DNA of 26,350 nt from Candidatus Hadarchaeota archaeon (GCA_964501125.1 CAZCRN010000001.1:1-26350), one strand, 5' to 3'. Counted from the first letter of the stretch, positions 504 to 20,525 are shown. Numbers and translations: made by a program. Notes: generated by a model not told the origin, from the sequence alone.

Positions 504-582
504 GTGTACAACGAAATCACTATATTCTAAACGAAGCAATAAAGTTGGGGTCGTGGGGTAGCTTGGCCTATCCTTCTGGCTT

Positions 583-609
583 AAGATCGTTCTTCAATGA
601 TCTGCCAAA
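583..609 (+). other. tRNA-Pro intron 1 (27 nt, non-canonical position 33/34)
   Basis: BHB motif: central helix TGGC(577-580)/GCCA(604-607), bulges TT|A and AA|T, intron hairpin AGATC/GATCT. Confidence 0.85.
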
Positions 610-613
610 TGGG

Positions 614-632
614 ACGTAGGCCAACGCAAAAA
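614..632 (+). other. tRNA-Pro intron 2 (19 nt, canonical position 37/38)
   Basis: BHB motif formed after intron 1 removal: central helix TTTG/CAAA(627-630), bulges GG|A and AA|A, outer helix CGT/ACG. Confidence 0.85.
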
Positions 633-732
633 AGCCAGAGACTCGAGTTCAAATCTCGGCGACCCCACCATGCCAAAGTTTAAGTTTATAGGATAGGGCT
701 TTGAGGTTGTGACGAACCTTTGGGTGGGAAAC

Positions 733-2543: not shown

Positions 2544-3381
2544 TCCCACAGCGAGAAAAAAAATTCAAGAAATTTTGGCCGAAGACATAGGCTCAGGTGA
2601 TGTGACAACCGAAGCTCTTGTGCCAAGTAAAGTTACAGCCAAGGCTGAGATAATCGCCAAACAATCAGGAATACTGGCGGGGGTGGCCGAGGCCGCCGCA
2701 GCATTCGAGGAGATGGGTGTTCGAGCAAAGGCCCTCAAATCCGATGGGCAGCGAATCAAACCTGGCGACGTGATAATGCGGCTTGAGGGCCCGGCCCGGG
2801 GCATCCTTTCAGTCGAACGAGTGGCACTGAATTTATTGATGCGCATGAGCGGCATCGCTACGGCGACGCGCGAGATGATCGATCGGGCTAGGAAGAAAAA
2901 TCCAAAGGTGATTATAGCAGCCACACGAAAGACGGCCCCGCTTCTGACCTATTTTGATAAACGCGCGGTCAAGGTCGCGGGCGGGGAACCCCACCGGTAC
3001 AAACTCGACGAACAAGTTCTGATAAAGGACAATCACCTCAAACTGGCAGGTTCAGTTGCCCAAGCGGTTCGTCAAGCGCGCGAAGCTGCAAAGGGTAGGA
3101 AAATAGAAGTTGAAGTTAGTAAGCCCAAAGATGCATGTGAGGCCGTGAGAGCGGGCGCGGATGTTGTGATGCTTGACAACATGAGTCCAGCGGATATTGG
3201 TCGTACAATGAAGGCGCTTGAACAGGAGCATTTGCGAGGTCAGGTAACCTTAGAGGCCTCTGGTAGAATCGATCTCTCAAACGTTGAAGATTTTGCATCC
3301 ACGGGTGTTGATATGATCTCATCGAGTTACATGACCATGCGAGCCCCGGCGTTAGACATGAGTCTGGAGATTCGAAGATAG
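2536..3381 (+). CDS. nadC: Quinolinate phosphoribosyltransferase (nicotinate-nucleotide diphosphorylase, carboxylating)
   Basis: AEDIGSGDVTT, ERVALN, TRKT, HR..L...LIKDNH, EVEV, MLDNM and EASG motifs. GTG start after GGAGGG, overlapping the nadA stop. Confidence 0.93.
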   Translation: MIDPTARKKIQEILAEDIGSGDVTTEALVPSKVTAKAEIIAKQSGILAGVAEAAAAFEEMGVRAKALKSDGQRIKPGDVIMRLEGPARGILSVERVALNLLMRMSGIATATREMIDRARKKNPKVIIAATRKTAPLLTYFDKRAVKVAGGEPHRYKLDEQVLIKDNHLKLAGSVAQAVRQAREAAKGRKIEVEVSKPKDACEAVRAGADVVMLDNMSPADIGRTMKALEQEHLRGQVTLEASGRIDLSNVEDFASTGVDMISSSYMTMRAPALDMSLEIRR

Positions 3382-3383
3382 GC

Positions 3384-4511
3384 CTAGGCACCAACAACGC
3401 TGTAAGTTAGATCGCTAAGTCTCCTGATAGCTTCAAGCTTCTCCCTTTTGCCGATTTTCGCTTCCTGAACGGCAGCCTTCAATACTTCATGGGCCTCATC
3501 CATTGCCTTGCGGTCAACTGGAAACGGTGTCCCATCCTTAGAGCCGAACGCGAACGAAAATTTCACCGGATCCTGCCAGCTTGGTTTACATCCGTACATG
3601 AGTTCAGACAACAAAGCGAGCCCGCGCACGGTCGCCAGCCCGATGCCTTTGAAACTCAATAGTTCCTCAAAGTTCGCGGGTTTGAGTTCGTAGGCACGCT
3701 GCATGGCAGTCCAGTCAACTCGGCTTGGGAGGAGCTTGATGTAGGCTATCCTCTGGGAAGGTGGCCCGGGGAACCATTCCTCAAGCGTTCGTTGCCCCCT
3801 GATCTTTGCAGCCCTGAATATAGATCGAATGTGGCTCGGGGAGTGATCGCGAATCAAATCAGTCACAACCTTGCGGCATTCGGTACTTTGCTTAGCAGTC
3901 ATGTTTAAGACCCGATCGTGCCATTGGTCGCCCAAGATCGCGCTGTGAGGTTCATCGACGAAGCTTCGAACTTGGTCGGATAGCCAGTGATAGCGTCTGG
4001 CCGCGTGGATCTTTGGTCGCATCCCCTGCTGCACGACTGCCCACTTCCCCTCATCAGTCACGAATATCGTGTGGTGGTAAATCGGATAACCAGCTTGGAC
4101 TGCAGCGGTGTCAACCTTCGCCGCCATTCGGCTCGCGTAGCGCGCTCGATCTATTTGTTCGGCTGCGAGGTCGAGCTGCTGACCTACCGTCGCTAGCTTG
4201 GCAGGCACTTGTCTGCTCAGCTTGCCTTTTCCCCCGACAGCCGCGATGCCGTGCTTGGCGGGGTCAAGGGCCGAGCGAAGGACACCGCATAACACAGTGG
4301 TTGCCCCCGAGGTACACCACTCCCAACCCAGACATGCGGCTAGACTCTGGAACCAGAGGGGGTCGGAGATACGCGATAAAAAGACATCTGGCCCGTACTC
4401 GTCGATGAGCACGTCGCACACACCGCGCGATAGTTTGATCATGCGTTCGACTAGCCAGGGAGGTGCACGCGTTGCAGCCAAGCGCAATTCAACCGTCGCG
4501 ACCTTGCGCAT
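3384..4511 (-). CDS. DUF763 family protein (divergent)
   Basis: APPWLVERMIKL, SDPLWFQ, GGKG, AKVD, WAVVQQGM, ARRYHW and KDGTPFPV blocks match my recollection of DUF763. Start placed at ATG 4511 because the longer ORF runs into tRNA-Tyr. Confidence 0.85.
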   Translation of the reverse strand: MRKVATVELRLAATRAPPWLVERMIKLSRGVCDVLIDEYGPDVFLSRISDPLWFQSLAACLGWEWCTSGATTVLCGVLRSALDPAKHGIAAVGGKGKLSRQVPAKLATVGQQLDLAAEQIDRARYASRMAAKVDTAAVQAGYPIYHHTIFVTDEGKWAVVQQGMRPKIHAARRYHWLSDQVRSFVDEPHSAILGDQWHDRVLNMTAKQSTECRKVVTDLIRDHSPSHIRSIFRAAKIRGQRTLEEWFPGPPSQRIAYIKLLPSRVDWTAMQRAYELKPANFEELLSFKGIGLATVRGLALLSELMYGCKPSWQDPVKFSFAFGSKDGTPFPVDRKAMDEAHEVLKAAVQEAKIGKREKLEAIRRLSDLTYSVVGA

Positions 4512-4533
4512 CTGGACCCCAATCGATAATCGC

Positions 4534-4549
4534 GCTGAAAGTTTAAGAA
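4534..4549 (+). promoter_or_regulatory. Putative BRE+TATA promoter of the tRNA-Tyr/5S/tRNA-Asp cluster
   Basis: GCTGAAA-G-TTTAAGAA lies about 26-33 nt upstream of the tRNA-Tyr 5' end. Confidence 0.5.
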
Positions 4550-4574
4550 CCTGAAAGTCAGAAAATTGAACGGT

Positions 4575-4677
4575 CCCGCGGTAGCTCAATTTGGTAGAGC
4601 AGCCGGCTGTACGCATGTTTCCGACATGCGGGCTAAAGACCGGCGGGTTGGGGGTTCAAATCCCTCTCGCGGGACCA
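4575..4677 (+). tRNA. tRNA-Tyr(GTA) with a 26-nt intron inside the anticodon, CCA encoded
   Basis: C1:G72 acceptor CCCGCGG/TCGCGGG-A-CCA (archaeal Tyr identity); anticodon stem GCCGG/CCGGC; mature loop CT-GTA-GA; T arm GGGGG-TTCAAAT-CCCTC. Confidence 0.93.
4611..4636 (+). other. tRNA-Tyr intron (position 35/36)
   Basis: Bulges GT|A and AA|A; central helix GGCT/GGCT (two G-U pairs); intron hairpin CGCATG/CATGCG. Confidence 0.75.
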
Positions 4678-4719
4678 TCCACAGAACAAGTTTTTTACCG
4701 CGGAGATCTCAATTTATTT

Positions 4720-4845
4720 GGGTTGGCGGTCACAGCGGCGGGGAAACTCCGGCTCTCGTCCCGAACGCCGAAGATAAGCCCGCCAGCGATCTGGACTGTA
4801 CTCTTGTGCGAGAGCCAAGGGGAACTCCAGGACGCTGCCAACCCA
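4720..4845 (+). rRNA. rrf: 5S rRNA (ends approximate)
   Basis: Terminal helix GGGTTGGC/GCCAACCC; conserved CCGAAC...GAAG.TAAGCC and GTACT...GCGAG...GGGAAC segments; followed by a T-run. Confidence 0.95.
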
Positions 4846-4891
4846 CTTTTGTAGAAATGCATATTACGACAATTGACAAACCTAAATCGGT

Positions 4892-4969
4892 GCCCCGGTA
4901 GTGTAGTCGGGTCTATCATGCGGCCCTGTCGAGGCCGCGACTCGGGTTCAAATCCCGACCGGGGCGCCA
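4892..4969 (+). tRNA. tRNA-Asp(GTC), CCA encoded
   Basis: GCCCCGG/CCGGGGC-G-CCA; anticodon arm CGGCC-CT-GTC-GA-GGCCG; T arm TCGGG-TTCAAAT-CCCGA. Confidence 0.97.
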
Positions 4970-5061
4970 TTTTCGCTCGAAAGCCTTAAATCTGGAAATA
5001 ATAGACTTAATAAGCGAAAAGCATAAAAAGGGTAGTTTTCAGCTACGTTTTACCCTCGGAG

Positions 5062-5136
5062 GGGCCCGTGGCGCAGTCTGGTCAGCGCACCGGCCTTTTA
5101 AGCCGGGTGTCGGGGGTTCAAATCCCTCCGGGCCCG
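5062..5136 (+). tRNA. tRNA-Lys(TTT), CCA not encoded
   Basis: GGGCCCG/CGGGCCC-G; D stem GCGC/GCGC; anticodon arm CCGGC-CT-TTT-AA-GCCGG; T arm GGGGG-TTCAAAT-CCCTC. Confidence 0.96.
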
Positions 5137-5171
5137 TTGGCGGCGGCGTAGCTGTTTGTGTGGTGGGAAAA

Positions 5172-5414
5172 TTGGCGAAAGAGTTCGATGTCCGGGAGCA
5201 CGTGCTCGTGCCCAAGCATGAGGTGCTAACGCAAGAGCAGGCACGCAAATTGCTTGAGAAATATAAGGTATTGCCACATCAGTTACCAGCAATCAAGGTC
5301 ACGGACCCGGCCGCAAAGGCGATAGGCGCCAAGGTCGGTGATATTTTAAAAATTACCCGGATCAGTCCAACAGCAGGCAAAGCCGTCGTTTACAGACAGG
5401 TGATCAGGGGCTAG
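5172..5414 (+). CDS. rpoH: RNA polymerase subunit H (Rpo5); start uncertain (5160-5172)
   Basis: HVLVPKHEVL...QLPAIKVTDP...GDILKITRISPTAGKAVVYRQV. TTG 5172 follows an SD-like GGTGG. Confidence 0.96.
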   Translation: MAKEFDVREHVLVPKHEVLTQEQARKLLEKYKVLPHQLPAIKVTDPAAKAIGAKVGDILKITRISPTAGKAVVYRQVIRG

Positions 5415-8400
5415 GTGGTGCAATTGCAAGAAGCGAAGTTGCAGGATACTTGGCCATTGCTTGGGGCTTTCTTCAAGGAGAAGGGTTTGGTTAGGCAACA
5501 CCTTGATTCCTATAACGAGTTCATCGAGCACCGACTACAGCAAATTGTTGACGAGATCGGTGGGATAGAGCTAGAAGTCGAATGGCTCGACGTCGTGTTC
5601 GGTCGCATCCGGATAGGTGAGCCATCGGTTAAGGAGGCCGATGGTTCGCGCCCCACCATATTGCCAGCGCAGGCACGGTTACGTAATCTCACGTACTCTG
5701 CGCCAATTTTCCTCGAAATGATTCCGGTAGTCCGAGGGCGCCAACGTGAACCGGTCGAGGTTTACATCGGCGAAATGCCAGTAATGTTGAAGTCAAAAAT
5801 TTGCGGGTTAAGCAAGATGAGCGATGAAGAGCTGATCGAAGCTGGCGAGGACCCACTCGACCCCGGTGGCTATTTCATAGTTAACGGTTCCGAGCGCGTG
5901 ATCGTTACACAGGAAGACCTCGCATCGAACCGTATCTTGATTGAACACGACGAACGTACGGCGCTAGAAGTTTCAAAAGTTTTCTCGACCCACCGTGGTT
6001 TTCGTGCACTGGTCATAGTCGAACGCAAAAAGGATGGTCTGGTGCGTGTCACGTTTCCAGCCGTACCTGGCCACGTGCCATTAGTGGTACTGATGCGGGC
6101 GCTTGGGCTCGAGAGCGACCGTGAAATCGTCGATGCGGTGTCGGATGATCCCGAGATCGTTAAGGAATTGTTCGAAAACCTGCAAGAGGCCATGGAGGTC
6201 AAGACAGGAGAGCAAGCGCTTGATTATATTGGCCGCAGAGTTGCGATCGGGCAGACGAGAGAGTACCGATTGCGCCGCGCTCAGGAGGTGCTGAGAAGGT
6301 ACCTGTCACCACATATTGGCTCACGCCCTGTGGATAACATCCATAAAGCCTATTACCTCGGCCGGATGGCCGAGCGAGCGATAGAGCTTGCACTTAGGCG
6401 TCGCGGTGTCGACGACAAAGACCACTACGTCAACAAGCGGCTGAAACTGGCCGGCGACTTGCTCGAGAGTATGTTTAGGTTAGCTTTCATCAACCTCATT
6501 CGCGACATCAAGTATCAGCTTGAACGTGCAGCTGCCCGCGGCCGAGAGCCGAACCTTCGGACCGCGGCACGTGCGGACGTGCTCACCGAGCGCATTCGAC
6601 ATGCCCTTGCAACAGGCAACTGGCCCGGCGGCAGGACTGGTGTAAGTCAGCTGCTGGATCGCACCAACTATATCGCCACTCTATCGCACTTACGCCGTGT
6701 CGTATCGCCCCTCAGTCGCAGTCAACCGCATTTCGAAGCTCGCGATTTGCACCCGACCCACTGGGGTAAGATCTGCCCATGTGAGACTCCAGAAGGCCCG
6801 AATTGTGGGCTGGTTAAAAATTTGTCATTAACAGTTGAAATCTCAACTGGCACCGACGAGGAAAAAGTCGAACGCGTTTTGTACAAATTAGGAGTCACGA
6901 AAATACAGAAAGGTAGCGAGCGCCGGGGCAAGGCAGGCGTTTACATCAACGGCCGCTTAATAGGGGTAACCGAAAACGGGCAAATGCTCGCCACCAAGCT
7001 CAGGGAACGTCGTCGCAAGGGTGCTGTTGATGAGCAGGTAAACGTCGCTTATAGCGCGGGCACGAACGAGGTAATGATAAATACAGACTCGGGTCGTGTG
7101 CGCAGATCACTGGTCGTGGTCGAGGGCGGAAAGCCGCTTTTGACGCAAGAGCATATCGAAAAAGTTAAGTCCGGCGAGCTGACCTGGCCCGATTTAATTC
7201 GGACTGGAGTGATTGAATACCTCGACGCTGAAGAGGAGGAGAATTCGTACATCGCAATTACAGAAGAGGGCCTAACACCTGAGCACACACATTTGGAGCT
7301 TAACCCAGGTTCGATTTTGGGCATATGCGCCGCGTTGATCCCATATGCCGAGCACAACCAATCGCCACGCAACACGTACGGCGCCAATATGGCCAAGCAG
7401 GTGCTGGGTATCCCAGCTACCAATTTCCAAGCTCGTCTTGACACCCGTGGACATTTCCTACACTTCCCGCAGACCTCCATGGTTTGGACGAAGGCCATGG
7501 ATGTGATTGGATTTGATCGTCGGCCAGCTGGGCAAAACTTCGTTGTCGCCATCATGTCATATGGAGGCTACAATATGGAAGACGCGCTCATCATCAACAA
7601 GAGCTCAATCGATCGCGGTCTCGGCCGTTCAACTTTCTTCAGACTCTATGAGGCCGAGGAAGGCCGTTACCCCGGTGGGCAACAGGACAAGTTCGAAATA
7701 CCGACAGAGGAAATCCGCGGATATGCAGATACGAGCCTCTATCGAAACCTTGGGGACGATGGCTTAGTTGAGATAGAATCCGAAGTGCGTGGCGAAGACA
7801 TCCTAATCGGGAAGACAAGTCCGCCGAGGTTCTTGGAAGAAGTCGATGAATTTGGCATAGCAGTTGAACATGGCCGCCGAGAGAGTTCGATAAGGGTTAG
7901 GCCTAGTGAGGGGGGTATAACTGACATGATTCTGCTTAGTGAGACGGTTGATGGCAATAGGCTGGCACGTGTTCGTGTGCGCGACTTGCGGATACCTGAA
8001 ATCGGTGACAAATTTGCATCTAGGCACGGTCAGAAAGGTGTCATAGGTATAGCGCTTGATGAGGCGGACATGCCTTTTACGGAAGACGGGATCGTACCCG
8101 ATCTAATAATCAATCCGCATGCTGTACCATCGCGCATGACAGTCGGGCAACTATTGGAGATGATTGCAGGCAAGGCCGGCGCGATGGCAGGGCAGCGAAT
8201 AGATGGCACGACGTTCAGCGGTACACCCGAACAGCAACTGCGTGAAATGCTGCGCAAACACGGCTTCAAGGATACTGGCAAGGAAATCATGTATAATGGA
8301 ATGACCGGGGAAATAATACAAGCGGACATTTTCATCGGCGTCTGTTACTACCAGAAGTTACACCACATGGTGGCAGATAAAATCCATGCCCGTGCCCGTG

Positions 8401-14443: not shown

Positions 14444-15706
14444 ATGGCAAAGCCACACCTGAACTTGATTACCATCGGACACGTGGATCACGGCAAGTCC
14501 ACCCTAATAGGCCGGATGTTCTACGAGAAAGGGATAGTCAAGGAAGAGGATATCAAGAAATTCGAGGCGATGGGCGATAAGGGCAAGACCTTCAAGTTCG
14601 CTTGGTTGATGGACGCTCTCAAAGAAGAGCGAGAGCGTGGACTGACAATCGATCTCGCCCACAAGAGATTCGAGACGGACAAGTACTACTTTACTGTAAT
14701 TGACGCTCCGGGGCACCGAGACTTCGTCAAAAACATGATCACGGGGGCCAGCCAAGCAGACGCCGCAGTTCTTGTAGTTGCAGCCGACGATGGCATCATG
14801 CCACAGACACGGGAGCATGCAGCACTCGCGTACACGCTCGGTGTTGGACATTTGATCGTCGTCATAAACAAGATGGACTTGGTCGACTACAAGGAGGACG
14901 TTTACAACAAGATCAAATCAGAAGTAATCGATTTGCTCAAGGGAATTGGCTACAAGAATCCTGAGGCATTCCCGTTTATCCCAGCAGCCGCGTTTTATGG
15001 CGAGTGTGTTACGAAGCCAAGCGAAAAGATGAAGTGGTACACGGGATCTGAATTCTTCGCTTCGCTTGATACGTGCAAAGTGCCCGAGAAACCTTTGGAC
15101 AAGCCTCTGCGTATACCCGTGCAAGACGTGTACTCGATTACTGGGGTTGGAACTGTACCGGTCGGGCGCGTTGAGACGGGTATGCTAAAAGCCGGCGATA
15201 CTGTGGTTTTCGAACCGGCGGGCAAGAGCGGTGAAGTCAGATCGATCGAGATGCACCATGAGACAATACCAAAAGCGGAACCAGGTGATAACATCGGCTT
15301 CAACGTACGCGGATTAGCCCGAGCGGATATAAGGCGAGGCGATGTCGCTGGACACACCACGGCACCCCCAACGGTGGCGAAGGAATTCAAGGCCCGAATA
15401 GCGGTTCTGCAGCATCCAACTGCAATAACAGCAGGCTACACACCGGTATTCCATGCACACACGGCCCAAGTCTCATGTACCATTACGGAGACCTCGCAGA
15501 AATTAGACCCGAAGACGGGTGAGGTCGTCGAAGAAAAGCCAGAGTTCATAAAGAAGGGAGACATGGCGACGATCGTGGTCAAGCCTAGGCAGCCCATGGT
15601 AATAGAGAAGACAGCGGACCTCCCACAGCTGAGCCGCTTCGCGATTCGAGACATGGGTATGACGATCGCAGCCGGCGCATGCGTGGATGTAACACCAGCT
15701 AAGTAA
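14444..15706 (+). CDS. tuf: Translation elongation factor EF-1alpha
   Basis: [30 protein letters not shown] and [13 protein letters not shown] motifs. Confidence 0.99.
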
Positions 15707-15719
15707 CCGAGAACGTCCA

Positions 15720-15737
15720 ACATTTTTTATTCCTTTC
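15720..15737 (+). terminator. Possible T-rich terminator/attenuator between tuf and rps10
   Basis: ACATTTTTTATTCCTTTC pyrimidine tract just after the tuf stop. Confidence 0.35.
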
Positions 15738-15750
15738 AGCACCCCTACTA

Positions 15751-16068
15751 GTGGAGATTAGCTTGCAAAAGGCTCGCATACGTTTGTCGGGCACAGATCC
15801 GAAAAAATTAGATCAGGTCTGCAAACAGATAACCGAGATCGCCAAGCGGGTCGGGGTCAAAATGTCCGGTCCGGTGCCGCTGCCGACGCGCCGAATAGTA
15901 GTCCCGACTCGCAAGTCGCCCGATGGTGAGGGAACGGCTACGTGGGATAAATGGGAACTGCGAGTTCACAAGCGTTTGATCGACATGGAGGCAGACGAGC
16001 GAGCAATGCGCCAGATCATGCGTGTTCAGATCCCTGAGGATGTCACGATCGAGATCGAGCTTAAGTAG
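15751..16068 (+). CDS. rps10: 30S ribosomal protein uS10
   Basis: [40 protein letters not shown] motifs. Confidence 0.98.
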
Positions 16069-16104
16069 CTAACTTCTTTTAGTTGCATCTCAATATTTTG
16101 GTAT

Positions 16105-16190
16105 GCCGGGGTGGCGGAGTGGAAACGCGTAGGCCTTGAGAGCCTATGGCCCTTTGGGCCTCGAGGGTTCGAATCCCTTCCCCGGCGCCA
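16105..16190 (+). tRNA. tRNA-Ser(TGA), long variable arm, CCA encoded
   Basis: GCCGGGG/CCCCGGC-G-CCA; anticodon arm TAGGC-CT-TGA-GA-GCCTA; variable arm GGCCC-TTT-GGGCC. Confidence 0.97.
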
Positions 16191-16191
16191 G

Positions 16192-16223
16192 GTGACCCAA
16201 ATGAAGCGATTTGGATGGGTTGA
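16192..16223 (+). repeat. Direct repeat copy 1: degenerate duplicate of the archease SD/5' end
   Basis: GTGACCCAAATGAAGCGATTTGGATGGGTTGA matches 17206-17237 at 28/32 positions and encodes MKRFGWVE versus archease MKRFEWVE. Confidence 0.9.
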
Positions 16224-16245
16224 GTCCAAATTTTTAATCGCCAAG

Positions 16246-16284
16246 TTTATATGCTGGCTGTTAAGATAATTTAACATATGTTAA
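16246..16284 (+). promoter_or_regulatory. TATA box and 14-bp palindromic operator of the MNT/HEPN cassette
   Basis: TTTATATG at 16246-16253 is about 25-30 nt upstream of ATG 16278 (probably leaderless). The perfect palindrome TTAACATATGTTAA at 16271-16284 spans the start codon. Confidence 0.6.
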
Positions 16285-16793
16285 TCGAATCTAACACTCA
16301 GAAAGTTCTGGCGTTTGTCTTCAAATACCCAACTAGGGGTTTCACAATCCGAGCCATCGCGAGGGGTCTGAAGATTTCCCCCCCAACCGTTTCCAACATT
16401 GTGGAAAAACTGGAAAAGAATGAACTGGTTAAAATTGTCAAAGAAGAGGTTCAACATAAGGTATACGGCAATCTCGAGAGTGAGCATTTTAGAGATTTAA
16501 AAAGGATTTATAACGTTTTTTCTGTGCGTGGGCTAAAGCACTTGCTGGTAAAAGAATTCAGACCAAATACCATCGTACTTTACGGCGCCTATGCTCGGGG
16601 CGAGGACAGAGAAGATTCGGATATAGATATTTATGTAGATTCTAGGATTGAGAAAGAAGTAAACTTAGAAACTTTTGAGAAAGAGCTAGGCAGGAGGATA
16701 CATCTTATAGTGAGGGACGCAAAGAAAATTCCCAGCGAACTCAAAAGAAGCTTGATCAATGGCGTCATCTTGTATGGTGTGATCGAATGGTAG
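16278..16793 (+). CDS. HTH-fused minimal nucleotidyltransferase (MNT antitoxin-like)
   Basis: N-terminal wHTH (TIRAIARGLKISPPTVSNIVEKL) and C-terminal Pol-beta-type motif LYGAYARGE...SDIDI; overlaps the downstream HEPN gene. Confidence 0.88.
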   Translation: MLIESNTQKVLAFVFKYPTRGFTIRAIARGLKISPPTVSNIVEKLEKNELVKIVKEEVQHKVYGNLESEHFRDLKRIYNVFSVRGLKHLLVKEFRPNTIVLYGAYARGEDREDSDIDIYVDSRIEKEVNLETFEKELGRRIHLIVRDAKKIPSELKRSLINGVILYGVIEW

Positions 16794-17209
16794 ATTTCGA
16801 GTATTATTTAACAAAAAAAATCGTGAAACGAAAATCAAGGGATACAAACTTAGCGAAGAGCTTGCTGGATTCTGCGAGGGACAGGTTTAAATTTGCCGTG
16901 AAGATAAAAGGCGAGAAACCAAGGTACGCACTGGAACTCGCTTACGAATCCGTCCGTGAATTGCTTGACGCACTATTATCACTGAGGGGTTACAAGACGT
17001 GGTCACATGAGGCAGCGATATCCTTCCTCAGGAACTTTGACGCGTTTGAGTCTACAGAGGTAGAGAGATTAAATGTAAGCAGGATGAAGAGACACTCAAG
17101 CAAATACTACGGAGCGATGCTAGACGCTAGAGAGGCTGAAGAAGAAATTACATTTCTGCGAAGCGTGCTTCAAAAGCTCGTGACGATTGTTGAGACTGAG
17201 TTGAAGTGA
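16787..17209 (+). CDS. HEPN-domain protein (putative RNase toxin)
   Basis: 140 aa, predicted helical; AYES.RELL.ALL...G....SHEAAI and R..RH...YYG motifs; coupled to the MNT gene. Confidence 0.8.
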   Translation: MVDFEYYLTKKIVKRKSRDTNLAKSLLDSARDRFKFAVKIKGEKPRYALELAYESVRELLDALLSLRGYKTWSHEAAISFLRNFDAFESTEVERLNVSRMKRHSSKYYGAMLDAREAEEEITFLRSVLQKLVTIVETELK

Positions 17210-17237
17210 CCTAAATGAAGCGATTTGAGTGGGTCGA
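17206..17237 (+). repeat. Direct repeat copy 2 (intact archease 5' end; also supplies the HEPN stop codon)
   Basis: GTGACCTAAATGAAGCGATTTGAGTGGGTCGA, 1014 bp downstream of copy 1. Confidence 0.9.
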
Positions 17238-17643
17238 ACATCCCTCAGATGTGGGTTTTCGGGCCTATGGCCGCGACTTGGCAGAAGCATTCGAGAACGC
17301 TGCGGCCGCGCTCTTCGAGGTGATGGTCGATACGAGCAAGGTTGAGCCGCGAGAAGAAATCTCGATCGAGTTGGAAGCCGAAGACGAGGGGGCATTACTC
17401 TACGATTGGCTCGATCGGTTGCTCTATTTTCACGATGCCCGGGGGCTCGTGATGTCGAAGTTCAAAGTAGAGGAACTATCAAGTTCGGAACGGGGTTTCA
17501 AGCTCAAGGCAAAAGCTTGGGGCGAACGATTCGACGCCGCTCGCCATCCCGAGCGAACCGCCGTCAAGGCGATGACTTATCACATGATGCAGATCAAACG
17601 TGAGCGCGATCGCTGTTGGGTACAAGCGGTTGTAGATGTCTAA
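17215..17643 (+). CDS. Archease (RtcB activator)
   Basis: [11 protein letters not shown]...G..L.EAF.NAA.ALF and VKAMTYH..........QAVVDV motifs; adjacent to rtcB. Confidence 0.95.
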
Positions 17644-17702
17644 GGCAATCCTTTTCAATAAAATGGTTTATCTGCGCTGCCTATATTCTTGTTAGGGATG
17701 GT

Positions 17703-20525
17703 ATGGTTTGGACCGGAAAAATCAAGCAGATCGATGAAGTTCGTTGGGAAATCCCGCAGGACTATAAACGTGGGATGCGAGTGCCGGCCCGGATTTTTGC
17801 GGACAAAGCGCTGTTAGATGAGATACGTAGGGATCTAACACTTGAACAATCGGCAAATGTATCATTTCTGCAAGGCATTTACAAATACTCGATTACGCTT
17901 CCGGATGGGCATCAGGGTTACGGTTTTCCGATTGGAGGCGTTGCGGCGACCGATGCGGAGACTGGCGTTATAAGTCCGGGCGGGGTCGGCTACGACGTGA
18001 ACTGTTTGGTTCCCGGTACCCTCATCCTCACACGCGATGGGTATCGCAGACCGATAGGTGATTTGAAAAACTGTTGGGCCCATTCTAAGCTCACGGTTTT
18101 CAACCTAAACGATCATGAAGCGGAAAACGCTTCGATAATTCGATTCATAGAGTTTCCTCCAAATACAGAACTTCATCGTCTACGCACTGCCAATGGCAGA
18201 GAGATCACCCTCACAGGAGACCATCCAATTTTAACTCCTAGGGGCATGTGTTTAGCACGCAAAATCCATCCAGGTACCCCGGTAGCTGTTTATCCATTTG
18301 AAGGGGTAGATTACAATCCTCCGCCCGATGAAACGATACTTGAAGAGAGGGATTTTGAGCCATCTGTCGCTAAGGAATTAAAGAAGCGTGGTTTTCTACC
18401 CATTCACATGAACCACCCGAAAATCGGCACCTTAGCACGATTAGTCGGTTACATCCTTGGAGATGGCTGGTTTAACACTTGGGTAGAGAGACGTAAAGAT
18501 CGGAAAAGTCCGCGGCATAGATTGATAGTCGGTATCTCTGGCGAGATTGATGGTTTAGAGAAACTTAGGGAAGATATCCAGAGTCTTGGATTCAAGCCTT
18601 CCCGGATTTATTCGAAGAGTCGCAGGCAGACGATAAAAACACCATACGGGTGGTTCGAAACGAATTGTTCCGAAAATTGTATCCACATTTCATCGAAATC
18701 GCTCGCTACCTTGATTAACAAACTAGGTGTTCCTCTTGGCAGCAAAGTCTTCGCCGATTTTGAGGTTCCTTCTTGGATAAGAAGTGCTCCCTTATGGATT
18801 AAAAGAAACTTTCTGGCGGGTTTTTTCGGCGCGGAGCTGTCCAAACCATCAGTGGTCAAAGAGCATCCATACACCTTCAACGTACCGTCCATAATCATTT
18901 CAAAGAGAAGAAATATCAAGGATTCGGGTTACAAATTTTTAAATCAGATCCGCGCATTACTTGGTGAGTTCGGGATAAAAACTCTTGAAATTTATGAAAT
19001 TCCATTGACCAAGAGCACGGTGGGTCTCAGGCTCCCCATCTCAAAAAATGATGAGAATCTTTTGAGGCTTTGGTCTAAGATCAGTTACGAATTCAATGAA
19101 GAACGTCGCCTGCGCGCAGCTCTAGCGGCTGAGTACTTGCGCCTGAAGTTAAAACACAGAGGAATGTTGAAAGATAGGTCAAAGCCGATCGCCTTCCCAA
19201 CTTTTAATGAATATGTCGAAAAAACGAAAGCGGAGCTGGGTCGCTCGGGGTTGGTGTACGATATCGTTGTAAAGAAAGAGATTGTCCGCGGATTTAAAGG
19301 ATTTGTGTATGATTTCACGGTTAACCACGAGGATCACAACTTCGTTGCAGACTGCTTCGTCGTTTCAAACTGTGGCGTCCGCTTACTGCGCACGGACCTC
19401 AACCGCAAAGACATCGAGCCTAAGCTGCGCGAGCTGGTCGACGCACTTTTCAGAAACGTGCCCTCCGGGCTAGGCAGCAGAGGAAAAATGCGGCTGACCA
19501 TGGCACAGTTGGATGAAGTACTAGAACGCGGGGCTCGCTGGGCTGTCGAAAATGGCTTCGGCTGGCCCGAGGATCTCGAGCGGCTGGAGGAAGGAGGGGA
19601 GATGGCTGGCGCAGATGCCGCGCGGGTCAGCGTTCTAGCGAAGCAACGTGGTTTGCCGCAGCTCGGTAGCCTCGGCTCTGGGAATCACTTCCTCGAAATT
19701 CAATGCGTCGACAAGATCTTCGACCCTGATGTCGCACAAAAGTTTGGCCTAACGCACGAGGGGCAGGTCACGGTCATGATTCACTGTGGCTCTCGTGGTT
19801 TGGGCCACCAGGTTTGCTCCGATTATCTGCGCACGATGGAACATGCAGTTCGCCAATACAAAATCGAGTTGCCCGATCGGGAGCTTGTTAATGTTCCTGT
19901 CACTTCCCCTGAGGGTCAAGCTTACTTCTCGGCAATGGCCTGCGCCGCGAACTACGCCTGGGCAAATCGCCAGATGATCGTGCACTGGGTGCGCGAGTCT
20001 TTCGAACATGTGCTTGGACGGGATGCCGAGAGTTTGGGACTACACATAGTGTACGACGTTGCCCACAACATCGCAAAGCTCGAGGAGCACAAAATAGACG
20101 GCGAGCGGCGTAAGGTCTATGTTCACCGCAAAGGAAGTACGCGCGCTTTCCCGCCCGGTCACCCGGACGTGCCCTCCATATATCGCGAGGTCGGTCAACC
20201 CGTGTTGATCCCCGGGGATATGGGTACGGCCTCCTATGTTTTAGTTGGCACCGAGCAAGGGATGCGGGAGACCTTTGCCTCAACTGCCCATGGTTCTGGG
20301 CGCCACCTGAGCAGGACTGCCGCGCGAAAGCGATACTGGGGTCAGGACATCAAGCGCAGGCTCGAAGCTCAAGGGATTATCACCCGCTGCGCGAAGATCT
20401 CAGTGATGGCGGAGGAGTGTCCTGAGGCTTATAAGGACGTGGACAAGGTGGTAAAAGTTAGCCACGATGCAGGGATAGCCCGGATGGTCGCTCGGTTAAA
20501 GCCGATGGGAGTTGCTAAGGGTTAA
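17703..20525 (+). CDS. rtcB: RNA-splicing ligase RtcB precursor (940 aa; 484 aa after intein excision)
   Basis: [22 protein letters not shown]|[32 protein letters not shown] and HGSGR motifs. Start at ATG 17703 after GGGATGG. Confidence 0.97.
18003..19370 (+). mobile_element. Intein (456 aa) with LAGLIDADG homing endonuclease domain in RtcB
   Basis: Starts [10 protein letters not shown]; block [12 protein letters not shown]; block [10 protein letters not shown]; block [11 protein letters not shown]; ends [19 protein letters not shown]; +1 residue is Cys. Removal restores [16 protein letters not shown]. Confidence 0.96.

Follow-up and report, generated by a model that had tools for sequence, protein, structure and literature searches.

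A mobile MNT/HEPN cassette between tRNA-Ser(tga) and archease in a Hadarchaeota archaeon

A stretch of 26,350 nt from Candidatus Hadarchaeota archaeon (GCA_964501125.1 CAZCRN010000001.1:1-26350; hereafter the window) carries two small overlapping genes, one for a minimal nucleotidyltransferase (MNT) protein and one for a protein with a predicted HEPN fold, directly upstream of the genes for archease and the RNA ligase RtcB. The HEPN-like open reading frame (ORF) ends only 5 nt before the archease start codon. Does this tight spacing betray an evolved circuit of RNA breakage and repair, as a preliminary description of the locus had proposed, or does it have another origin? The biochemistry on which that proposal drew is well founded: HEPN RNases produce 2',3'-cyclic-phosphate ends (PMC3710099) and archease activates archaeal RtcB (PMC3973293).

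Our analysis favours a different explanation, to which we assign a probability of about 0.8. A horizontally mobile toxin-antitoxin (TA)-type cassette of ~1.0 kb, with its own promoter, inserted between tRNA-Ser(tga) and archease, and the 5-nt spacing is the scar left by this event. The coupling would then have a historical cause and should not be read as a purpose-built RNA break-and-repair operon. The element is a mobile MNT/HEPN cassette, a known kind of element, in an uncharacterised subfamily.

Target duplication, empty sites and strain polymorphism at the tRNA-Ser/archease junction

The two genes are bracketed by a 32-nt direct repeat (16192-16223 and 17206-17237; 28/32 identical, spacing 1014 bp), the core of which is recovered by blastn with 21/22 identical positions (E 2e-6). 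The GC content falls from 0.50-0.57 outside the cassette to 0.39-0.46 within it (about 0.53 to about 0.40). Both the repeat and the GC drop had been overlooked in the preliminary description. The repeat copies the Shine-Dalgarno (SD) site and the first 22 nt of archease. The features of the locus, all on the + strand, are listed below; wHTH stands for winged helix-turn-helix.

16105-16190, + strand: tRNA-Ser(tga), left anchor of the insertion site (ARAGORN, Rfam, comparative junctions)
16192-16223, + strand: left direct repeat, the displaced original junction with a GGTGA SD and the first 22 nt of archease
16201-16269, + strand: remnant ORF of 22 codons, MKRFGWVESKFLIAKFICWLLR plus stop, opened by the left repeat (translation)
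16231-16235, + strand: T5 run that follows the remnant junction and precedes the cassette (sequence)
16246-16284, + strand: putative cassette promoter/operator, with TATA-like TTTATATG at 16246-16253, GTTAA at 16260-16264 and palindrome TTAACATATGTTAA at 16271-16284
16278-16793, + strand: wHTH-MNT gene, 171 aa, predicted antitoxin and autorepressor (Pfam)
16787-17209, + strand: HEPN-fold gene, 140 aa, probable AF0298-type HEPN-T (AlphaFold2 [AF2] model, Foldseek, alignments, PADLOC PDC-M05B)
17206-17237, + strand: right direct repeat, with the working GTGA SD and the archease start (repeat search, blastn)
17215-17643, + strand: archease, 142 aa, RtcB cofactor (Pfam PF01951 E 7e-48; NCBIfam PRK00407 8e-50)
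17644-17702, + strand: archease-RtcB spacer, with a T4 run, TATA-like TTTCAATA at 17653-17660 and SD-like AGGGATGG
17703-20525, + strand: RtcB RNA ligase, 940 aa, intein-containing (Pfam PF01139 E 1.5e-173)
18003-19370, + strand: RtcB intein, 456 aa, from CLVPGT to VVSN and followed by CGVR (Pfam Intein_splicing 9e-11; NCBIfam RtcB_rel_intein 1238 bits)

For comparison, 34 other archease loci were fetched from one-genome-per-species archaeal assemblies and their genes were mapped (fetched relative loci are labelled L001-L067). The empty site is present in 10 Hadarchaeota genomes (L016, L018-L022, L024, L025, L029 and L044; most at ~3989-4001), where the order is S7, EF1a, S10, tRNA-Ser, GGTGAnnnn, the ATG of archease, RtcB, MTase, L3 and L4. 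There, the 3' end of tRNA-Ser(tga) and the archease ATG are separated by 9-11 nt, with the GGTGA SD in between. The left repeat of the window corresponds to the junction of the tRNA with GGTGAnnnnATGAAGCG in these 10 genomes. Both hallmarks of a mobile element, a flanking target duplication and an empty site in relatives, are thus found at this locus.

The spacing itself had been correctly described: the HEPN-like stop codon TGA occupies 17207-17209 and is followed by the spacer CCTAA (17210-17214) and the archease ATG at 17215. This stop codon lies within the duplicated target, as is also the case in L001 (ATGA overlap with archease) and in L003 (T/GA at the junction), and for this reason we regard the 5-nt spacing as a direct product of the insertion. 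According to our model, the cassette would have landed in the tRNA-Ser(tga)/archease junction and duplicated 32 bp of its target; the toxin-like ORF would run into the duplicated target, take its stop codon there and end 5 nt 5' of the archease ATG.

The same tRNA-cassette-archease arrangement was found, independently assembled, in Logan contigs of two runs from a hydrothermal-vent sample, among the three runs, stored as Logan contigs, that contain the window sequence. In one of these runs (X2), the contig is near-perfect through S10, the tRNA and the cassette (3 differences in 15700-17240) and after the direct repeat (window 17241-17472) changes to an archease allele of ~85% identity. This change may stem from a strain living alongside or from a contig that is chimeric, crossing over at the conserved archease start. 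In the Logan contigs neither a skip nor a back-joint across the repeats was seen, although contigs are unable to prove that such joints are absent.

Presence of the cassette varies within a species. L001 is the only one of the other archease loci with a cassette before archease (1/34), and L031, of the same species, lacks it, with flanks 98.6-98.9% identical (98.7% at the nucleotide level); L031 has 76 nt where L001 carries a 4.4-kb island ending in the cassette. Of the 61 mismatches between the two strains in the right flank, 8 lie in the 87 nt that open archease (Poisson P~2e-5), and the next 218 nt are free of mismatches. This clustering at the archease start indicates a recombination tract ending inside the gene; when its first 90 nt were set against other lineages, neither strain stood out as the recombinant.

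The gap between tRNA-Ser and archease holds 0.6-4.4 kb of unrelated cargo in 8 other genomes (L001 2022-6415; L014 1315-2115; L015 970-3501; L017 2719-4000; L023 299-4000; L032 1379-3484; L034 1758-4000; L043 2651-3291), including a DUF553-like protein, an ABC transporter, a PhoU/phosphate transporter, an IS-like ORF and a RelE-like pair. Strong DNA-level conservation marks its two borders, the tRNA on one side and the initial ~90 nt of archease on the other, and homologous exchange between lineages may be what makes it a hot spot. The cassettes of the window and of L001 are mutual closest relatives, with 79-81% amino acid identity vs ≤61% to all others, and at synonymous sites they differ slightly less than archease and L3 do (pS 0.63-0.65 vs 0.72-0.74). 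Probably the two cassettes go back to one insertion event and later spread laterally.

Members of the cassette family at other sites

Protein searches, a metagenome scan and context look-ups gathered ~19 distinct genomic contexts for the close family, which occurs in Hadarchaeota and DPANN archaea. Neighbours include prefoldin (2 nt downstream), an MBL/RMMBL-fold gene, tRNAs, S10 and Fic, Sua5 and MinD, SHMT, a polysaccharide flippase (8 or 43 nt downstream), AAA_14 genes, TA/defence islands and RtcA. Several relatives belong to islands that also hold PIN, methyltransferase, AAA_14, DUF4258 or further MNT/HEPN genes. In a more distant subfamily, the cassette adjoins another MNT/HEPN pair in a nanoarchaeon and elsewhere follows an aminoacyl-tRNA synthetase (aaRS) gene. 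Flanking target duplications of 18-153 nt are present at five further insertion sites:

L003 5378-5440 / 6425-6486: 63-nt duplication, 92%, start of prefoldin
L009 2777-2929 / 3910-4062 (also L008, L049): 153-nt duplication, 100%, 3' end of the MBL/RMMBL-fold gene
L062 252-281 / 1304-1333: 30-nt duplication, 93%, 3' end of a tRNA
L060 2939-2974 / 4102-4137: 36-nt duplication, 92%
L067 2886-2903 / 3947-3964: 18-nt duplication, 94%, 3' end of an aaRS gene, distant subfamily

Since its 153-nt repeat is perfect, the L009 insertion appears to be very recent. At this site, the 12-15 nt preceding the right copy bear a weak resemblance to what precedes the left one (ATGTATCAGAC vs ATGTTTCTGGAC). In five contexts the cassette is coupled to the downstream gene at ≤8 nt, namely archease twice, RtcA, prefoldin and a flippase. 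The RtcA gene (RNA 3'-terminal phosphate cyclase; L052 858-1553; Pfam RTC 7.8e-60), on a contig of only 1.5 kb, starts 7 nt after the stop codon of a cassette relative with 54% identity.

At the left end the family is sharply bounded (CGTTAAATTTATATAA...GTTAA...TTAACATATGTTAA): the block from CGTTAAATTTATATAA to the MNT start codon is kept in 13+ loci of different organisms, and homology ends 41 nt before this ATG. Six independent sites with duplications of 18-153 nt and no recombinase gene offer a tractable case for studying TA cassette movement in archaea. Literature searches turned up neither this MNT/HEPN subfamily nor its insertion signature, nor any TA cassettes with target duplications of this kind. 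Of interest here is an uncharacterised subfamily invisible to Pfam, with a sharply defined promoter/operator end and an ORF that is open-ended into the target DNA.

A close parallel for the landing site is provided by archaeal tRNA-adjacent hot spots and islands with TA genes, as in Sulfolobus islandicus (PMC3718332), which share with our locus the strain-specific cargo and the direct-repeat bounds. Unlike these islands, the cassette lacks an integrase and has duplicated not a tRNA but the 5' end of the protein gene that follows, and repeats of 18-153 nt fit no single site-specific recombinase. No integrase or insertion sequence (IS) remnant was found in or adjoining the window cassette, and no IMG/VR contig encodes a relative, so that no viral carrier was found.

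In the cassette of L058 (2466-3395), the HEPN-like gene is split into three reading frames, a decaying copy adjoining SHMT. L003 holds, on the opposite strand (2953-3907 and 4096-4830), a second MNT/HEPN pair, which is PF05168-positive, and an OrfB_IS605/TnpB-like gene, 0.7-2.5 kb upstream of the prefoldin-associated cassette.

The two cassette proteins and their likely toxin-antitoxin nature

The MNT protein combines an N-terminal MarR-like winged helix (MarR_2/HTH_24) with a minimal nucleotidyltransferase domain (GAYARGEDREDSDIDIYV). The latter scores above the Pfam cutoffs for both Polbeta (E 2.5e-8, 34.4 bits vs 26.9) and NTP_transf_2 (E 7e-8, 33.1 bits vs 21), and the catalytic signature G-[SA]-x(9-10)-D-x-D, present as LYGAYARGEDREDSDIDIYV, is kept in 12/12 family members. 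The protein also matches PADLOC PDC-M05A (1e-15). Between the window and L001, dN/dS is 0.08 for the MNT gene and 0.07 for the HEPN-like gene, values that show both to be under strong purifying selection.

The preliminary description had called the downstream gene a HEPN RNase. Its fold finds support, whereas a match by sequence was not obtained: the 140-aa protein has no significant counterpart in Pfam, NCBIfam or PDB (phmmer), also when a 10-sequence family profile is used, and neither the window protein nor its 9 nearest relatives match PF05168, for the window protein even at E≤10. Since identification from sequence failed, the HEPN assignment required structure prediction. An AF2 model built on the family alignment reached a pLDDT of 94 and a pTM of 0.89, and nearly all of its top PDB matches in Foldseek are HEPN proteins (2hsb, which is AF0298, 1ufb, which is TT1696, Csm6, sacsin, HepT, 1o3u and 1wol), with 2hsb the best and with modest statistics throughout (E 0.01-0.3, TM 0.55-0.70).

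Comparison with distant relatives points in the same direction. A profile search collected 70 relatives, the distant members P0040, P0044 and P0064 of which match PF05168 and read ...KSYSHEA...R-K-K-R-N-G-I-K-Y-Y-G. In a motif-level match, hhalign against the Pfam-positive HEPN protein of L003 aligns SH74 and R-x-x-R-H-x-x-x-Y, and PADLOC PDC-M05B matches the window protein at E 1e-5. Family alignments show as invariant SWSH74EA and R99-x-K-R102-H103-S-S-K-Y107-Y108-G (R99-M-K-R102 in the window). A four-helix HEPN fold of the AF0298-type clade is thus supported by the model and these alignments.

Within this fold the Rx4-6H motif of catalytically active HEPN proteins is missing, as Tyr stands in the His position (R102-x4-Y107). 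Members of the AF0298-type HEPN-T clade have lost the motif His, and an additional conserved His upstream has been proposed to restore an active site (Anantharaman et al. 2013, PMC3710099). The window protein has the corresponding invariant residue, H74. Like the clade, which is NT-associated (PDB 2hsb), it pairs with an MNT protein and keeps the R of the motif while losing the H; unlike the clade, it and its close relatives do not match PF05168, and H103 follows directly after R102. RNase activity of this HEPN-T protein is a prediction.

In its likely mode of action the pair comes closest to the type VII module HepT/MntA (PMC7641770; PDB 5yep, 7ae8, 7bxo). Shared with it are the two-gene MNT and HEPN composition with overlapping ORFs, the GSx(n)DxD core of the MNT, the match of the fold to HepT structures and the presence of tyrosines beside the basic motif, where HepT is AMPylated. 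The cassette differs in its gene order, MNT then HEPN, and in the N-terminal wHTH of its MNT; it falls below the MntA equivalog cutoff (NCBIfam NF047752; 29.6 bits, E 5e-7, vs 60 bits) and has no Rx4H and no detectable sequence similarity to HepT. By analogy, its likeliest mode of action is that of a HepT/MntA module: the nucleotidyltransferase would neutralise its HEPN partner, perhaps by AMPylating Y107/Y108. The general anatomy of TA modules is present as well: small genes that overlap (by 7 nt), a putative promoter with a palindromic operator and a patchy, mobile distribution.

One might argue that the pair is no TA module at all, being instead a nucleotidyltransferase with a non-catalytic HEPN partner that binds substrate or regulates, similar to kanamycin nucleotidyltransferase, or an anti-virus module active only in infection, such as the PADLOC candidate PDC-M05, so that its position beside archease would be meaningless. 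The Tyr in place of the classical catalytic His, the low MntA score, the two PDC-M05 matches and the PIN, methyltransferase, AAA_14, DUF4258 and MNT/HEPN islands around several relatives all lend themselves to this idea. Both cassette proteins indeed match the two components of PDC-M05, but modestly, and PDC-M05 is only a candidate defence system without a known mechanism. Defence and TA roles are, moreover, compatible with each other. Gene overlap, an operator that looks autoregulatory, mobility and a patchy occurrence are what one expects of TA modules, the invariant patch H74, R99, R102 and H103 fits the alternative AF0298-type active site (PMC3710099), and both genes are strongly constrained. 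We hence consider a non-TA role unlikely, while granting it appreciable weight, and retain a TA module as the preferred interpretation.

Archease expression and the question of RNA repair

From where, then, would archease be transcribed? Because it starts so closely behind tRNA-Ser in cassette-free relatives, archease ancestrally would have had no private promoter and would have been made from the tRNA-Ser unit. In the empty-site genomes the mRNA of this tRNA-splicing cofactor seems to be a tRNA-mRNA co-transcript, freed by tRNA 3' processing.

In the window, as in the other contexts of the close family, a TATA box lies 25-32 nt before the MNT ATG, and GTTAA half-sites include a perfect 14-bp palindrome, TTAACATATGTTAA, across the start codon. 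These features suggest a cassette promoter that is leaderless and autoregulated, the MNT protein probably binding through its wHTH. The T5 run at 16231-16235 is a possible archaeal terminator of the tRNA-Ser transcript, and no oligo-T intervenes between the HEPN-like gene and archease. A crude TTTAWATA search (TATA-like octamers with ≤1 mismatch) returned sites at 16246 (cassette) and 17653 (before RtcB) and none on the + strand in 16894-17652, a stretch that includes the 320 nt upstream of archease. Given the T5 run, the cassette promoter and the lack of both oligo-T and a TATA-like octamer before archease, transcription of archease from the cassette promoter is most likely. The preliminary description, which saw no room for a promoter in the 5-nt gap and had archease made from the TA promoter or by read-through, is borne out on the first point and, as far as these features tell, names the likeliest state on the second.

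By this insertion, archease would have moved from the tRNA-Ser unit to the TATA/GTTAA-operator promoter of the cassette, probably leaderless and probably autorepressed by wHTH-MNT, and would be translated via the retained GTGA SD or by termination-reinitiation. The remnant ORF left behind at 16201-16269 keeps its SD, spans the TATA box of the cassette and stops 9 nt before the MNT ATG. The insertion thereby probably put an essential tRNA-splicing cofactor under a TA promoter, which illustrates how a selfish module could become entrenched.

Alternatively, archease could be expressed independently of the cassette, by read-through from tRNA-Ser/S10 or from a cryptic promoter within the HEPN-like ORF, and the cassette would be transcriptionally neutral. 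Archaeal promoters may match the consensus weakly, an AT-rich stretch (AAATTACATTT) lies ~65 nt 5' of the archease ATG, and the ancestral layout relied on the upstream tRNA unit. Read-through would, however, have to pass the T5 run after the remnant junction, TATA-like octamers are absent from the stretch scanned, and the cassette promoter is conserved with correct spacing; independent expression therefore appears to us rather improbable. RtcB, for its part, probably keeps its own promoter in the archease-RtcB spacer, where relatives share a conserved T5 run, an AT-rich box and AGGTG.

We now return to the circuit. In this proposal HEPN cuts tRNA or rRNA, leaving 2',3'-cyclic-phosphate and 5'-OH ends, derepression co-induces archease and, through it, RtcB activity, and the reversible cleavage is selected for dormancy, antiviral response or addiction. 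The tight coupling without a visible archease promoter, the occurrence of the cassette immediately 5' of archease in both the window and L001 and the relative that stops just before RtcA are in its favour, and the chemistry is compatible: HEPN RNases leave 2',3'-cyclic-phosphate ends (PMC3710099), archease activates archaeal RtcB (PMC3973293) and RtcA feeds RtcB (PMC3854526). A dedicated RNase/repair operon should, by contrast, show conserved co-occurrence across lineages, and this is not what we observe. A count of MNT/HEPN beside archease yields the window and 1/34 other archease loci only; the adjacency is a scar within a general hot spot and is missing from the conspecific strain L031 and from 33/34 other archease loci. 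The window and L001 copies, as closest relatives, probably represent one event, ~16/19 family contexts have unrelated neighbours, and the RtcA case was noticed post hoc. Furthermore, the canonical Rx4-6H motif is absent, and the ligase itself, RtcB, seems to own a promoter behind oligo-T. An evolved circuit is therefore quite doubtful, and the proposal is not upheld by these data; such a circuit is at best possible as a by-product of the landing site.

Related systems underline the difference. In the metazoan unfolded-protein response, IRE1 (KEN/HEPN) works with RTCB and archease, and bacteria have an RtcR-rtcBA operon induced by damaged tRNA (PMC7790460, PMC10944509). They share the chemistry of the proposed circuit, in which a metal-independent HEPN cut leaves 2',3'-cyclic-phosphate and 5'-OH ends that RtcB reseals with the help of archease. 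Their link is conserved and regulatory or functional, whereas that between cassette and archease is sporadic and strain-variable. MNT/HEPN beside archease or RtcB was not found reported in the literature.

Several points weigh against the insertion of a TA cassette as we describe it. Two independent contexts touch RNA 3'-end healing and sealing, archease-RtcB and RtcA in L052; Rtc-pathway neighbours thus occur in 3/~19 cassette contexts, or two independent events. With p~0.0025 (~3 Rtc-pathway genes per ~1200 genes) and the window and L001 counted as one event, at least two such neighbours in ~19 contexts have a nominal P~1e-3, an estimate made post hoc that assumes uniform placement and ignores the liking of the cassette for the ends of conserved housekeeping genes. 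In addition, both the window cassette and that of L001 adjoin the archease ATG, with differing junctions; this could reflect selection for the position instead of shared descent plus homologous exchange. The 1014-bp cassette has only two ORFs and encodes no recombinase, integrase or transposase, and flanking repeats are missing from roughly half of the contexts. With duplication lengths so variable and no recombinase encoded, a staggered cut of fixed size is an unlikely cause; one might speculate instead about template-switch insertion or about single-crossover 'pop-in' of a circle that carries a short target segment. Finally, the promoter and the co-transcription of archease are read from sequence, and TA behaviour, RNase activity and the insertion mechanism are to be taken as predictions.

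A more general version of the repair idea would have the family as an integrase-less module that favours the starts of housekeeping genes, captures their transcription and is biased to RNA healing and sealing genes. We rate this as improbable as the circuit itself. If it were true, derepression would make both RNA cleavage and resealing factors, a self-limiting reversible switch, and the cassette would be hard to lose. The RtcA neighbour makes such coupling cheap to examine by a neighbourhood census. In the 13 stretches of 9 loci whose ORF lists we read by eye, located just upstream of archease in each of the 9 loci and in the archease-RtcB spacers of L012, L027 and L040, no other toxin-like gene stands beside archease.

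The rest of the neighbourhood is conventional. Archease (PF01951) lies directly 5' of RtcB (PF01139) in nearly all of the 34 loci, including those of Thermococcus and Methanobacteriaceae, in line with the known archease-RtcB tRNA-splicing/RNA-repair operon (PMC3973293). The RtcB start is ATG at 17703 and not TTG at 17616, as given in the mechanical ORF list, and with this correction the archease-RtcB gap is 59 nt. Archease is 63-82% identical to other Hadarchaeota archeases, and the RtcB exteins are 74-88% identical to relatives (C-extein 74-84%). Downstream of RtcB follow a Methyltrn_RNA_3 gene and then the L3/L4 ribosomal protein genes.

The normal substrates of RtcB and archease are intron-bearing tRNAs. 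Rfam reports two long tRNAs at window 547-667 and 4575-4674 (121 and 100 nt), not called by ARAGORN, which presumably contain introns, and a 5S rRNA at window 4722-4843 adjoining tRNA-Asp and tRNA-Lys.

The RtcB intein is polymorphic, most Hadarchaeota RtcB genes being without one. The intein of L034 (4909-6270) is 72% identical to that of the window, and inteins of L024, L027, L033 and L035 occupy the same RtcB insertion point with only 34-36% identity; these values imply at least two intein lineages at one RtcB site. L027 also has two ORFs (4538-5466; 191 and 118 aa, the first starting MRYLARLHGYVCGDGYANIY) between archease and RtcB, which may be a free-standing homing-endonuclease-like gene.

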